Positions 37,880 to 60,076 of a stretch of DNA of 64,000 nucleotides are shown here, piece after piece. The notes under the pieces were generated by a model. That model did not search any database and was not told the origin of the DNA. It saw nothing but the letters and a program-made list of their open reading frames with translations. The position numbers and the translations under genes were made by a program. How positions within the stretch are numbered: the first letter of the stretch is position 1; the number at the start of each line of letters is the position of its first letter. Source of the stretch: Mustelus asterias (lineage: Eukaryota); assembly GCF_964213995.1 (NCBI RefSeq), contig NC_135809.1:59520001-59584000 (forward strand). The letters are read 5' to 3'.

Positions 37880-38858
37880 TGAATAAGATGTTCTCATCTG
37901 TCGAGGCTCAGCTCCATAATGCAGGCTTCAGTGCTCTACAGGCTGTTCCCAGATAGACATCAGCTGCTGCTGGAGGGCCATCCACTTGGTGAAAGATCTT
38001 CATTCGTCTGCTCGAGATTTGCTGACCTTCCAGTGCAAAGAACTACTGATGACTGAGTGTTGTAGTCTGGCACATTCCAAGGTCCTGGGCTACGTGCTAA
38101 GAGACGCAGTTGTTCTACATGCCTTTAACGGATAGCCACAGCAGTATGAAATTTTTTGGCAAAGCAAGGGTTAATTTGGGACTGGAGAAGCATATCACCC
38201 ATAGTACGATGTGGAGAGTCACAGGACAGTGGACTGGAATGAGGCAGTATGGAGCCAGCACCCATGCATGTCAGTACCTGGGATACGTCCATCGTTATGG
38301 TTAACAATAAATGGCTTATGTTTAAACACGCAAGTCTCCAGATGTCTTCGTGAGACATCACTCGAACCTTTACAACAGCACTGAATGTTGGGGCCAAAAG
38401 GCTGGAGGAAGAAAGGACAGTGTCAAAGGCCTCCAATCATAGTACTCTGAGGGGCTGTAAACCATGTAAAATCCCTCAGGCTGTATGTGCAGACCCTATC
38501 ACCATAACTCCACATATTTATCCTGCTTATGCCCCTAACCTACACGTCTCGGGATCTAAGAGGCAATTTAGCATGGCCAATCCACCTAACCTGCACGTCT
38601 TTGGACGAGATTGGATTTTCTTTCTCCCTTTCTCTCTATGTCTCCACACATTGTGGAGAGATTGTGCACTATGTGCAGAGAATGTTTGATATGGAATGTA
38701 AATGGACATTGTAAATACAATCCACAAAGACTGTGTATTGAGGCACCTCATCTACTGTATTTGACAGACACCAATCTGCACTGTATGCAGTGTCAATAGT
38801 GAAGCATTATGCGATTTTACAAATTTTATGAATAAACTATATTTTTGAAAAAAAGAAA
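37880..38858 (+). mobile_element. Degenerate Tx1/L1-type LINE 3' end
   Basis: Remnant VLY.LFP...CCWRAI..VKD...ARDLL.FQCKEL..TECC.LAHSKV..YVLRDA, AT-rich 3' UTR, AATAAA and an A-rich tail at about 38848-38858. Confidence 0.65.
38494..38669 (-). repeat. Inverted local duplicate of 39469-39633
   Basis: Near-identical reverse complement, including non-SINE flank. Flanked by TATGTGCAGA direct repeats. Confidence 0.9.
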
Positions 38859-39877
38859 ATGTTTTCCTCACAATTTTCTCCTCGCCTCCCCAGAAGGCAC
38901 TGACTCACACCTGCCTCCATGGGTGCTGGAACACGTTTGTGTCTTGCCGACACATTAAGGTGGCACTATACAGTCAAGTATCCGGCTGTGACTCACCAGC
39001 TGGAGCCACCTGGGTAAATTGGAACAACTCACATCGAGATTGGAACTGTATCAGAATCAGTTTACAACACTTCAGGCCGGAAAGCTACCAGAAAGTGCAG
39101 CTGGAGCTTAGTGGAGCAGGTTTGCGAGGGCTTGCGTGGTCACAGGACACTCAACAGGTCACTTCAGGCCCAATGGGTAAAGAGCCTCTTCAGCTGACCA
39201 CACACATGATAAGGTCCCAGGTTGGTCCACACTTGGTCAAATCTATGGAATCAATCTCAATCTTGATGGGAAATACATTTATACAGATGCTGGGTGATTT
39301 AGAATTGCAGTTGATTGCAATGTCCTGCATGGACAAACGGCCAACCAATTTTCCAAATCCCTGCCCATTTAGGCAAAGTCCTATAAAAGGCCTTGGACCT
39401 GTTAAATTGGTTAATAACATCCATCACTCGAGGCGGGAGGGTGGATGTTGGGGTGGTGGAGTTGGGGGACAATGTGTGGAGACGTAGAGAGAAAGGGAGA
39501 AAGAAAATCCAATCTTGTCCAAAGACGTGCAGGTTAGGTGGATTGGCCATGCTAAATTGCCTCTTTGATCCCAAGATGTGTAGGTTAGGGGCATAAGCAG
39601 GATAAATATGTGGAGTTATGGTGATAGGGTCTGGATAAGATGCTCCATCGGAGAGAGTCAGTGCAGGCTATATGAGCCAAATGGCCTGCTTCTGTACTGC
39701 AGGGATTTTCTGATTTAGGGACTGGAAAAGCTCAAGCTGACTTTTGAATCCAGCATTCCTCCCTCGCTTGCCCCACAATGTATGCAGGCTCCAAATCGTG
39801 GCCTTGGGCTTGCTCATAGCCATTAAATGGAGACAAGGTAGCTCCATCCACAATCACCAAATTTCTGGCACTTACCC

Positions 39878-40180: not shown

Positions 40181-41444
40181 TCTGAGTCTTTCTTTGCATG
40201 GGTGAAGCTATAGTAAAGATCTCATTTCATCGTATTCTGATGGCCAAATCACAGTATAAGCAAGGAAATAGAAAAGAAAATGTAGCAATGATGGTTTATG
40301 AAAAACGACTTAAATCTCTTGTGTTTGCTGAGCTGTGTTGACTCAATCATTGCCTTCATCTCTCAGCAACATTACATTTCTTTGGCTAAGCAATTATGAA
40401 AGTTCACATTGTAAATAATTCTCACAAGGTGTTCGGAAAAGAAAAATTATGATTTGGACTTAAACTGCCATTAAGAGTACCCCAGAGTACTCCTTCACAG
40501 AAAATATTAGCCGTGCAGACTAAAAAAACGACCCCTGATCGAATGAGTTATTTCAGTCAAGGTAGAAATAAAGGCAACATGTTTGGTTTAATTGCTCCTT
40601 AACACAGCTTCTTTTTGAGGTAAAGCTGAGTTGCCAATGAATTACATTTTGAAGTCCAGAATTCTGTGCATTTTATTACAAGCTATCTAGAACTGACCAG
40701 GAGATATATAAAAACAATCAATCCAAGTGATTTGTACATCAAAACATTTCTGTGGTGCTACTAAATAGCTACCGAAACTTTTTTTTCTTCCATGCCTGCC
40801 TGATCTATTTAACTGGAAGTTAGGTTTTACACAATGCTTCTGTGGAACTATAAAAGCCAGATGCCACCTGAAAAATCAGGCAGAACGGTTATAAAAATCT
40901 GTGAAGCAGCACAGAAAATTCAAAGGATTTTGGTCAGAATTCTCTGGCTGTTCACGGCAGCAAGATCTTCTGGTCCTGCTGACAATGTACCTCCGACACG
41001 GGTTTTCCGGTGGTGTGGGGTGGAGTCAAATGGAAATCCCATTGACAGCGGAGGAACCAGAAGATCCCACTGCTGGTTAATGGCCGTCTCCTCCCACCAT
41101 GAGAAATTCTCCCACTGGAGAATACCCCCCTTTATCTAGTCTTAGGAGTCCAGTTAAAAAGTCAGAGCTGAAGTCTGTCATTTGGAAGATTTGATGAGGG
41201 AGGTTAATGTTTATGGCAGGGTGAGGAGCGGATACCTTAACCATCCACTGCTTATTTCACCCCAGCATTGGCAGCCTTTAGCCATCTCAGCCTTAAACTC
41301 CACAGGCGCAATGTTACTGACTGTTCATGCCCCACAACCACTGCACGCGAGGATGGAGAATTCGGCACTCAGCTCCGTTCATGGCAGCGAGACCAGAAAA
41401 TCCTGCCGGCACGAACGGCCCGAAAAAAACCCACCCCAAGATTC

Positions 41445-41727
41445 CTTCACCCCCACCACCCGCATTCCCCCCTCCCTCACCCCCACCACCCGCATTCCCC
41501 CCTCCCTCCCTCACCCCCACCACCCGCATTCCCCCCTCCCTCACCCCCACCACCCGCATTCCCCCCTCCCTCACCCCCACCACCCGCATTCCCCCCTCCC
41601 TCACCCCCACCACCCGCATTCCCCCCTCCCTCACCCCCACCACCCGCATTCCCCCCTCCCTCACCCCACCACCCGCATTCCCCCCTCCCTCACCCCCACC
41701 ACCCGCATTCCCCCCTCCCTCCCCCCC
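41445..41727. repeat. C-rich minisatellite, ~30-bp unit (TCACCCCCACCACCCGCATTCCCCCCTCCC), about 9 copies
   Basis: Direct tandem repetition. It generates the spurious Pro/His-rich ORFs. Confidence 0.97.
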
Positions 41728-57482: not shown

Positions 57483-57991
57483 CCTTTAGCTTTTGCTTCA
57501 GTTTCCTCAGGGACTCCAAAAAATCCCCATACCCTGGAGACAATATTAAAAAATAATTATCTTAAAGGCAAACATAAAACGGATCCATTTTCCATTATAT
57601 TCTCATCCACAACTGGTTGCACTTCTACAATATATAGTTTAATTGCATGAATTTATTATTTTCAATCTACTCTCAAAGCTCCTTTTCAGGAAGGCACTTT
57701 CATTCGTCTGGAACTATCCTGTCCATGCTGCTAGTTAGCATATATTGATCTTGTTCACAGAAATATTCACCACAAAGGTTAAAGGTACTGCCTCTCAAGG
57801 TGTTCCAGTCAAGCTCCTCCTTTACAACTACAACTGGAAGTTGAGCAGCAGCGCTATGGGAAAAGAATAGGAGTAACTGAATAGCTACTTTAAAAGGAAG
57901 CCACAGGTATGATGGCTCTCTCTGTGCTGTACGATGCCATAATTCTAAGATAACTTTGTAATTGTGGATCTACACCAATGCGACCACCAGC

Positions 57992-58443
57992 TAAAAACCT
58001 TTTGGCTAAGATCAAGTGTAGTATGGACGGTATGGGTTGCCCGTCCGTGCTGTGCTTGGTTGGGGTCATTAGGTTATATTATAAGCTTCATTTAAAAATG
58101 AATCAATTTTTAAAAACCGGCATCTCGGCCTTTTTTGGCTGAGATGCAAATGAGATCAGCCTTGGAGGAGGTGGGCTTGCGCCTGCTCCAATCAGCTTGT
58201 CTCATGTAGATCAAGCCCGAGATGGAGGCTGCAGAACCTGGTATGCATGATGTGGAGATGCCGGCGTTGGACTGGGGTAAACACAGTAAACCTGTTGGAC
58301 TTTAACCTGGTGTTGTTAAACTTCTTACTGAACCTGGTATGGCCACAGGGGATGCAGACTCTGTCTTGTCAGCTTGGATCAGGAATGTCTCAACTTGTTG
58401 AGACTTTGAATTGGATTTGATTTGATTGGAAAAGTTAAAAAAA
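57992..58443 (+). mobile_element. U2 snRNA-derived composite retroposed element (copy B)
   Basis: 57998-58024 is an exact match to U2 nt 13-39 (CCTTTTGGCTAAGATCAAGTGTAGTAT). Second U2 stem-I-like unit at 58120-58147, A-tail, and perfect TSD AATGCGACCACCAGC (57977-57991 and 58444-58458). Confidence 0.85.
58246..58329. mobile_element. Mini PLE family A insertion (inverted + forward pLTR pieces) nested in the U2-derived element
   Basis: Matches 12576-12617 and 12243-12285. 12-bp TSD GAACCTGGTATG at 58234-58245 and 58330-58341. Confidence 0.88.
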
Positions 58444-60076
58444 AATGCGACCACCAGCCATAAGTAAAAGACTCCCATTTATATTACACGTTATCACATC
58501 CCAGAACACTTCATCTGCATCGAGCCACCTTGCAGTGACCATTGAATAAATATGGGCATCATTTAAACACTGCAAGATCCCATAGAGAGTAATGGACAAA
58601 TGCCTAATTAAGCAACTCTGCTGGTGTTATGGGAGAAATGAACATTGGCTTAAATAGTGGATGTTTCGGGCAAATGGTGCCCGGAATGTGTTACACCCGC
58701 TTAAAACCTGGAACAGGCAGGGAGGGCCTCAGATTAATGGACTGGAGCTCACTGGAAAATAATGGCAAGTGCACAATGCTCGCCACTATTGACGTACAAA
58801 TCAGCTAGCAACTTAAGGCAATGAAGAAATATGCCATTAGTTGAGAATTGCCAAAATGGCCTTGTCAATTTATGCAGTTCTGCCATTTGCTTTGCACTAT
58901 AATCATCTTGCCTTTTGCCCTGCAGTTATTTTCAAGTACTTTCTGGATTGCATTTTAATTGCCTGTTAAACTTGCCACAGAAAGTTATATCTGGTAATTA
59001 AGAATATAAGTATTCTTAACAGCATGATAATTGTTAATGCAATGCCAATTAACACCCTGGTCCAGAAACTGAACAATTCAAATTGTGGAATCTCATTCCA
59101 ACAGGTAGTAAATAAGACCATAAGATATAGGAGGAGAAGTAGGCCATTGAGTCTGCTCCTCTATTCACTGAAATGCATGGCAGGCAGAACTATTTATTGA
59201 ATAGACTTTTGCTGTTAACCTTGGTCGTGTTGTCATAAAATATATCACTGTGAACACATGGCTAGAGGGATCTCGAGTTACTTGTGTTAGGGCAGAAAGG
59301 AAATGCACACAAATCTTTCCTCAGGAGGTAAAATGATTCACCATTTCGGTAACAAGATGAATTAAACATACGAGTGTGGGAGGACTGGGCCAGTCAGACT
59401 AAATAGTCTTTCCTCAGCCTATATTCTATATATTCATTTTTCCATCTTTTCTTGGTTTGAGCAGGACTTAATAAATCTTATCTCATTTGCATGTGCAGCA
59501 CTAATCAATCATGGTTTTCATGAATAGGAAGAAGAATTTGCCAATGAACAGAAAAGATGTGAGAAACGGGCTGTACTATTGTAAGCAAAAACTCCCATGA
59601 TAGTGGCCATGGAAAACAAAGAACCAAGAATTTCACCTGTGCTTGAAAAGTATCCTCCAGTCTTCAGACACAAAGCTCTCTCAGAGTTGGTCAAGCCAAG
59701 CTGCAGTTTGACCTTTGCCATTTTGACCTTGGTGGTAATAAGGCCGGTTCAGACTCTTGTTGCCCGGGAATCAGGCTCTTCCAAGGACAAAACTCTTTGC
59801 ACAATAATCCACTACTCAGCAGATGGTAAAACTAATCACAATATTTCCTCATGGCTCCTGTGAAGATTTTCTTTTGTCTGTTAGGTTCCACCAGACCACA
59901 GGGTCCGAAGTTAACAAAACAATCAACTATTTAGTCTTCTTGAGAATTGTTTTCATCCCACAGCCATTTCTGTTAATGACAGCACCAGAATATCATGAAT
60001 TGATTCCAAACATGCAGTAAACCATTCCAATGAGAAGGGGGTCCCCTTACCGACCACTGCAAACAATGGGCCCATC

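Follow-up and report, generated by a model that had tools for sequence, protein, structure and literature searches.

Short interspersed elements (SINEs) headed by a small nuclear RNA (snRNA) are described from crocodilians, where SINEU-1 to SINEU-3 target Mariner-N4 and were linked to the long interspersed element (LINE) Tx1-Mar; their promoter was left open, snRNA promoters lying outside the RNA (PMC4494074). The U2 snRNA gene is itself a target of LINEs. According to excerpts of PMC4640811, Keno and Utopia insert between U2 nt 38 and 39, and their 3' flank begins at U2 nt 39. Here we describe a U2-headed retroposon located at positions 57977 to 58458 of a 64,000-nt stretch of the genome of the shark Mustelus asterias (contig NC_135809.1, positions 59,520,001 to 59,584,000; the whole stretch is hereafter called the window), together with the family to which it belongs.

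The family shows the general features of the SINEU class (PMC4494074), in agreement with the earlier note on this DNA, which had called the insert SINEU-like. Members are non-coding and shorter than 500 bp, with a U2 head, an internal U2 module and an A-tail. Oligo-T runs are present and RNA polymerase (Pol) III boxes absent in the two copies scanned, and none of 30 loci examined revealed a LINE with a shared 3' end. As in the crocodilian elements, a Tx1-clade partner is judged indirectly by shared targets, tandem copies sandwich a target-site duplication (TSD), and the copies have a structure in common that marks them as one family and not as an assortment of chimeras. The crocodilian elements, however, are directed to Mariner-N4, whereas the shark copies occupy diverse dispersed targets that resemble the U2 site, are associated with a Keno-type partner and are also inserted in U2 genes. 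Only here are copies found behind U2 upstream regions, along with dispersed copies that carry U2 flanks. The family is not a member of SINEU-1, SINEU-2 or SINEU-3, being set apart by its targets and host. No shark SINEU was found in a literature search, with most subscription journals and Repbase Reports outside its coverage, and SINEU has been reported only from crocodilians. The family extends the class of snRNA-headed SINEs from crocodilians to a shark and supplies what the crocodilian data lacked, namely a named, U2-targeting candidate partner, SINE copies located behind the upstream regions of U2 genes, and U2 flanks on dispersed copies.

Three further systems invite comparison. Keno (Tx1 clade, with an APE endonuclease) and Utopia (with a restriction-like endonuclease, RLE) use the same U2 position, duplicate U2 sequence downstream of the cut, and show relaxed specificity for U2-like sites as well as tandem insertions (excerpts of PMC4640811). 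Both are autonomous coding elements, whereas the SINE is non-coding, about 350 bp long and shares no body with Keno, so it is not an internal deletion of Keno; the same excerpts contain no mention of a non-autonomous Keno partner. R2 and the short internally deleted elements (SIDEs) of R2 and R1 in 28S ribosomal DNA (rDNA) provide a model of non-autonomous passengers of a site-specific LINE that are co-transcribed from the target gene (excerpts of PMC3414825 and PMC3774820). According to these excerpts, SIDEs are deletion derivatives of the LINE, carry a ribozyme like that of hepatitis delta virus and lie in rDNA sites under Pol I. The SINE, in contrast, has a body of its own, matches no ribozyme in Rfam and has an snRNA target transcribed by Pol II; ends derived on both sides from the partner LINE, as in SIDEs, were not found. 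In its logic the SINE nonetheless comes nearest to these rDNA elements. Finally, 3'-truncated U2 retropseudogenes and chimeras of U2 with L1 or Alu also combine a U2 5' fragment, TSDs and LINE machinery. These are independent one-off events according to excerpts of PMC4494074, whereas the shark copies number in the thousands and have a body in common, with head junctions specific to each subfamily.

The reading that we regard as probable is that the family is a SINEU-like passenger of Keno, with source copies at nt 38/39 of U2 genes and under the U2 promoter. If true, it would represent a non-autonomous partner of Keno, of which none was found described, and a Pol II counterpart of the rDNA SIDEs, with target sites re-used across successive subfamilies. 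Transcription from the U2 promoter would also address the open question of how SINEU elements are transcribed.

A multi-copy family with U2 heads

Exact searches of the genome (3.68 Gb) returned 5,305 matches to an internal 16-mer and 5,099 matches to a 3' 21-mer of the element, both counts being lower bounds; reversed-pattern controls gave 0. With at least 5,305 copies and with independent TSDs, the insert is not a one-off chimera. The earlier note's description of a mobilised composite U2-derived retroposon, as opposed to a simple U2 pseudogene, is thereby borne out, and membership in a real multi-copy family of U2-headed retroposons is almost certain.

Intact copies are about 310-375 bp long and non-coding, with A-rich tails. 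The 142 copies that have both a head and a 3' end fall into seven clusters of at least three copies, separated by 11-22%, with four singletons left over. Because copies were de-duplicated on a 120-base core, near-identical ones may have been merged, and the counts of clusters and of TSD sites are lower bounds. The junction between head and body is specific to each subfamily. The window copy belongs to a homogeneous subfamily (1.7% from its majority sequence) of about 20 copies, 15 of them with exact head junctions.

The full-length head comprises U2 nt 1-38, ends where Keno inserts and is identical in sequence to the U2 gene of this genome. In an unselected sample, taken from the first 90 places among the matches listed on C1, the head is present in 73 of 87 copies. 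The most common 5' end is U2 nt 1, found in 13 of the 72 unselected copies having both ends, and the upstream flanks of copies that start at nt 1 are unrelated to each other (mean 2.6/10 matches). Independent outer TSDs of 8-19 bp were detected at 38 of 132 sites by a strict search; the false rate of a looser search was 11 in 452. A LINE with the same 3' end as the SINE was not found, the upstream DNA being SINE body in all 30 loci picked by the 3' motif. The two copies scanned for promoter elements both lack an A or B box (1 mismatch allowed) and contain internal T4-T6 runs.

Loop variants following U2 nt 38 recur across clusters (e.g. clusters 2 and 5, or 2 and 3), which suggests recombination or template switching between source genes. 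Clusters 7 and 9 lack the terminal AAAGTA motif that the other clusters share with the Keno 3' end. Cluster 7 is placed oldest by its order in stacked arrays, and the SINE tail may have become more Keno-like over time.

A Keno-type LINE as likely partner and the re-use of insertion sites

The genome contains U2 arrays on C24 (major U2) and on C21 (a second U2 class with a 448-bp unit). Both arrays harbour a LINE with U2 fragments at its 5' end and with U2, from nt 39 onward, after its A-tail. It encodes a zinc-knuckle protein in its first open reading frame (ORF1) as well as APE and reverse transcriptase domains (Pfam PF03372, PF13966, PF00098 and PF23057/8 above the cut-off, PF00078 partial and just below it), and it is not of the RLE type. 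The label Keno-type rests on the junction at U2 nt 39, no named Keno being among the homologues returned. Keno in this genome is not strictly U2-specific: a motif from its 3' untranslated region (UTR) gave 249 matches, and in 0 of the 30 first-listed matches does U2 follow.

Keno is tied to the SINE by a shared U2 junction, by a SINE target motif that resembles the U2 site and by a tendency of the two to stack. The 3' ends of eight SINE copies run directly into U2 nt 39 onward (control 0). A SINE lies directly downstream of 9 of 30 sampled Keno 3' ends and on either side in 10 of 30, compared with an expectation of about 0.0001 per side. At 34 primary dispersed SINE sites, four bases are enriched ahead of an A, namely T-6 (20/34, p = 1e-4), A-3 (22/34, p = 7e-6), G-2 (18/34, p = 1.5e-4) and T-1 (16/34, p = 0.012). 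All of these agree with the U2 site, and three of the four pass correction for the 16 positions examined. Anchoring the sites at the first non-A base had given only an A bias and a weak signal, with false sites included, and was discarded. For Keno itself only 3 usable sites were available, too few to build a target motif. A comparison of the SINE body with the 5' and 3' UTRs of Keno found no similarity.

Tx1-type machinery, to which the earlier note had linked the insert, is supported by these data. The Tx1/L1 remnant in the window at 37.9-38.9 kb, to which that note pointed, is probably not the partner: the remnant (37909-38107 and 38829-38859, interrupted by other repeats) has a 3' terminal motif of the same kind as that of Keno, and its ORF2 is only 72% identical to the Keno of this genome. 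The U2-targeting Keno-type LINE is very probably the partner.

Two observations concern Keno itself. A dispersed copy at C7:35.96 Mb (L129) begins with 92 bp of the upstream flank of second-class U2, followed by U2 nt 1-35, an arrangement which suggests that Keno may itself be transcribed from within U2 arrays. At C24:44.81-44.94 Mb (L081, L082, L282) there is an 8,035-bp tandem unit that comprises an intact U2 gene and a U2 gene interrupted by a full-length but broken Keno. An amplification of the unit, about 15-fold, has carried the dead LINE along.

Stacking of SINE copies is common. A same-strand neighbour within 440 bp was found for 22 of the first 100 matches listed, compared with about 0.15% expected at this density. 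At most inner junctions the target sequence is repeated; in a few cases the units adjoin directly, forming dimers without a TSD between them. Adjacent units belong to different subfamilies in 19 of 25 pairs, and in 9 of 25 pairs both units begin at the same 5' position (chance 0.11, p = 0.0009). The order of subfamilies is nearly fixed. Among 26 ordered pairs of different subfamilies, which are not independent of each other, cluster 2 stands on the left in 12/12 and cluster 7 on the right in 7/7, the cluster of the window copy lies to the left of clusters 3 and 5 in 5/5, and only the combination 3/5 was seen in both orders. In one array (L003) the leftmost duplication includes the head of the neighbour, and the left copy is therefore the later one. 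A comparison of left and right copies by divergence gave no dating of the array order (p = 0.81).

Unequal crossing-over as the origin of the arrays is ruled out by the 19 of 25 neighbour pairs that differ in subfamily. An origin of the TSD-separated units in single events is not favoured either, given that divergences of neighbours are uncorrelated (rho = -0.06, p = 0.79) and the subfamily order is near-fixed; the few dimers without an inner TSD may be single events. The shared 5' starts would be the expected outcome of top-strand cleavage within the older head, followed by annealing of that strand to the new cDNA. For R2, a target sequence on the 5' end of the RNA has been proposed to anneal and to prime second-strand synthesis (excerpts of PMC3774820). 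At C2:128.43 Mb (L219), a truncated Keno is flanked on each side by two SINE copies, the whole stack spanning about 2.2 kb.

Copies inside U2 genes and the proposed source of the transcripts

U2 is transcribed by Pol II from upstream elements (PMC4494074), and two loci place the SINE behind such regions. At C24:43.06 Mb a copy is joined seamlessly to the major U2 upstream region; behind it come a Keno fragment, another SINE and U2 nt 39-191. At C21:28.06 Mb a full-length copy lies in a second-class U2 gene, likewise without a seam, in the order upstream region (99% identical to that of neighbouring units), U2 nt 2-39, body, A-tract and U2 nt 39-191. Conversely, sequence from U2 genes accompanies dispersed copies. 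On C4, C10 and C11 this is the final 4-5 bases of the upstream region of the major U2 gene. The second-class upstream flank is represented by 32-250 bp in copies on C1, C6, C8 and C14 and in a Keno on C7. A copy on C12 is preceded by U2 nt 33-53 and followed by U2 nt 39-58, both within its own 13-bp TSD, and in one further copy the head extends to U2 nt 53. Most U2-associated copies fall in cluster 2, and more than 99% of all SINE copies lie outside the U2 target gene. The simplest reading of the flank-bearing copies would be that they were reverse-transcribed from transcripts of U2 genes holding a SINE, and source copies of the SINE are, on this anatomy, probably transcribed from U2 genes. 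The U2-embedded and U2-flanked copies make this model of promoter capture directly testable at two known loci.

The second U2 class was seen at C21:28.05-28.08 Mb (L277, L138, L278, L279). Its genes have an identical 5' end, are about 85-90% identical overall and have a different upstream region; few of them are intact among many Keno insertions.

A life cycle can be proposed from these observations. Copies of the SINE occupy the position of Keno in two U2 gene classes, as observed, some of them seamlessly in the order U2 upstream region, U2 nt 1-38, body, A-tract and U2 nt 39 onward. Pol II starting at U2 +1 would yield a U2-headed RNA, the head thus being co-transcribed target sequence and not an internal promoter. 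Judging from the shared sites and the target motif, this RNA would be copied by the endonuclease and reverse transcriptase of Keno through target-primed reverse transcription. New copies would mostly go to loosely U2-like sites (TnnAGY|A) throughout the genome, and an occasional return into a U2 gene would create a new source gene and, with it, a new subfamily. The 5' junction of a resident copy is re-used by later SINE and Keno insertions, as the stacks display, and the resident U2 head may serve as a homology arm for second-strand priming. The arm that follows the head is predicted to fold back and to hide the sequence that pairs with the branch point.

Folding of two natural copies gave energies far below those of shuffled sequences (z = -10.0 and -6.7). 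In both single folds and in the alignment fold, the segment following the head pairs with U2 nt ~10-38 and the internal module forms U2 stem-loop I, which leads to the prediction that the arm masks the branch-point-pairing segment. Variation is concentrated in three loops. RNAalifold revealed little compensatory evidence, with 1 two-sided change in 81 pairs. An initial test for selection on stems (p = 5e-5) relied on a structure that came from the alignment under test and spanned only 44 columns, and it was not upheld on independent folds.

A more far-reaching version of the cycle, offered as a speculation, would see the SINE as a promoterless RNA parasite that cycles through U2 genes. Its 38-nt U2 piece would act as promoter capture and as homology arm or landing pad while being self-masked against disturbance of splicing, and U2 nt 39-191 with the 3' flank on source copies would take the RNA along the snRNA export and re-import route to the Keno proteins. 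If true, cycling through U2 genes could be a general solution for elements of the SINEU type, with an origin independent of the crocodilian ones, and the stacks would form a dated record of successive subfamilies.

Other explanations account for parts of the data. Keno could mobilise the SINE while the RNA derives from read-through of Keno or host genes, or from an internal promoter that has escaped recognition; copies in U2 genes would then be by-products of the targeting by Keno. Read-through is possible where Keno lies directly upstream of a SINE, as in 9 of 30 Keno copies; flanking promoters were proposed for crocodilian SINEU by Kojima (PMC4494074), and intact U2-embedded copies are few, with none of the subfamily of the window copy. 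However, 5' ends peak at U2 nt 1 next to unrelated upstream flanks, the sole shared 5' extensions seen are flanks of U2 genes, A and B boxes are missing, and the T4-T6 runs argue against Pol III, so we consider this explanation unlikely. Less likely still is that the machinery comes from a different and more dispersed Tx1 family and that Keno and the SINE merely share permissive sites. The missing extended homology to the 3' end of Keno would fit such a family, as would older Tx1-type elements with the same terminal motif, for example the 72% identical remnant in the window. Yet the SINE inserts at the exact U2 position of Keno, the motif of its dispersed targets matches that site, and Keno itself is mostly dispersed (249 motif matches, 0/30 of those sampled followed by U2).

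The addition of the head to each copy by template switching to U2 snRNA, which would turn the set into a sum of chimeras, is already largely refuted and retains only a very small probability. Template jumps to snRNA are described (PMC4494074; excerpts of PMC3414825), extra U2 fragments precede some copies and a few dimers lack an inner TSD, but the head is found in 73 of 87 unselected copies, and its junction to the body is specific to each subfamily. Moreover, the body contains an arm complementary to the head, and what lies upstream of the 3' motif was SINE body, never a LINE, in 30/30 loci selected by that motif. The idea that the sources are functional host genes for a non-coding U2 variant RNA, with dispersed copies as processed pseudogenes, appears the least credible of all. 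It draws on the strong structure of the RNA (z = -10.0, -6.7), on the concentration of variation in three loops, and on a T-tract between stems that may resemble an Sm site, although not canonically. Against it, there is a turnover of subfamilies through time, the U2-embedded copies are bordered, like insertions, by A-tracts and by the remainder of U2, no Rfam family matches, and selection on stems is not supported.

The reading of a Keno passenger transcribed from U2 genes must also be weighed against several results that count against it. Concerning the partner, the sequence common to the SINE and Keno is limited to about 7-13 terminal bases, and the 3' UTR of Keno gives no match to the family profile. 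The target motif appeared only after re-anchoring at the first A, and its comparison among Tx1 elements covered the Keno-linked site only. Concerning the sources, the copy at C24:43.06 Mb is internally deleted and is the sole seamless copy found behind the major U2 upstream region, while the C21 copy has mutations of its own, including one at nt 1, and differs by 3% from its nearest dispersed relative. A search for a U2-embedded copy of the subfamily of the window copy found none. The U2-flanked copies came almost entirely from targeted patterns, the sequence of U2 nt 39-52 occurs in 0 of 120 unselected loci scanned, and for several of the flank-bearing loci insertion into a dispersed U2 fragment, or a template jump, is an alternative reading. 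The use of the U2 promoter is a deduction from anatomy. At the level of the family, no more than 24 of the 77 unselected sites yielded an outer TSD in the strict search. Array order makes one subfamily, itself heterogeneous, the newest, yet it is not the least diverged (5.2%, compared with 3.9% for the oldest-placed and 1.7% for that of the window copy). Folds of single subfamilies gave no support for selection on the structure (p = 0.20, 0.06 and 0.37).

Anatomy of the window copy and its surroundings

The following features are given on the forward strand, except for the nested insert, which carries no strand assignment. A perfect 15-bp TSD and an A-tail, both reported earlier, are present: the left repeat at 57977-57991 recurs at 58444-58458, next to a tail of 9 A at 58437-58445 whose last two are common to tail and TSD, so the first two A's of the TSD could also be tail. 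The pre-insertion site fits the family target consensus at 3/4 positions (T-6, A-3, Y-1). A 6-nt filler at the 5' junction (57992-57997) resembles neither the TSD nor U2. It is followed by the head (57998-58024), an exact 27-nt match to nt 13-39 of the genome's own U2 gene that includes the branch-point-pairing GTAGTA, as the earlier note had described; the head is 5'-truncated and ends at the insertion position of Keno and Utopia (nt 38/39). A subfamily-specific hairpin, the first hypervariable region, comes right after U2 nt 38 (58025-58048) and leads into the arm complementary to about nt 10-38 of the U2 head (58049-58075), for which pairing with the branch-point-recognition segment is predicted.

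A second, internal U2 module lies at 58121-58146, preceded by a conserved tract of 5-6 T. It corresponds to U2 nt 7-27, i.e. stem-loop I: a profile of 142 copies matches this segment with 23.4 bits, a score reached by 0 of 200 shuffled U2 sequences, and the resemblance to U2 stem I noted previously is thus confirmed. The diverged third module, thought to resemble U2 stem II and the Sm site, had to be given up. Its local alignment scores of 22-33 are within the shuffle range (mean 28, 95th percentile 38), and the family profile of the region matches neither U2 gene class. A colinear U2 with stems II-IV and Sm site was not found, only nt 1-39 and 7-27 being matched, and the Rfam U2 model (RF00004) gives 20.8 bits on the window copy (E = 0.41; gathering score 46). 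An Rfam scan for a ribozyme or any other RNA family returned 4 matches, all below the gathering score.

The structured non-U2 body (58147-58245) consists of two hairpins with hypervariable loops and showed no similarity to U2 or to the ends of Keno. The 3' body and terminus (58342-58436) are conserved across subfamilies and not demonstrably U2-derived; only the last 7-13 nt resemble the 3' end of Keno. Between these two parts, a later insertion of a common short repeat (58246-58341) comprises 84 bp (58246-58329) and a 12-bp duplication of 58234-58245 (58330-58341). Intact copies lack this insertion; outside it, the window copy and an intact relative agree in 341 of the 351 positions that align.

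Nested pieces of one common short repeat, which may be Penelope-like, were seen in 6 of 20 copies of the young subfamily of the window copy (L005, L010, L011, L015 and L017 in addition to window positions 58246-58341). Five of the six lie at or next to one position of the 3' body, with differing inserts, and none was seen in unselected copies of other subfamilies. Elsewhere in the window, a GC-rich 20-bp minisatellite occupies positions 1-1320 with 67 copies, and a 30-bp minisatellite is repeated 9 times at 41443-41727.

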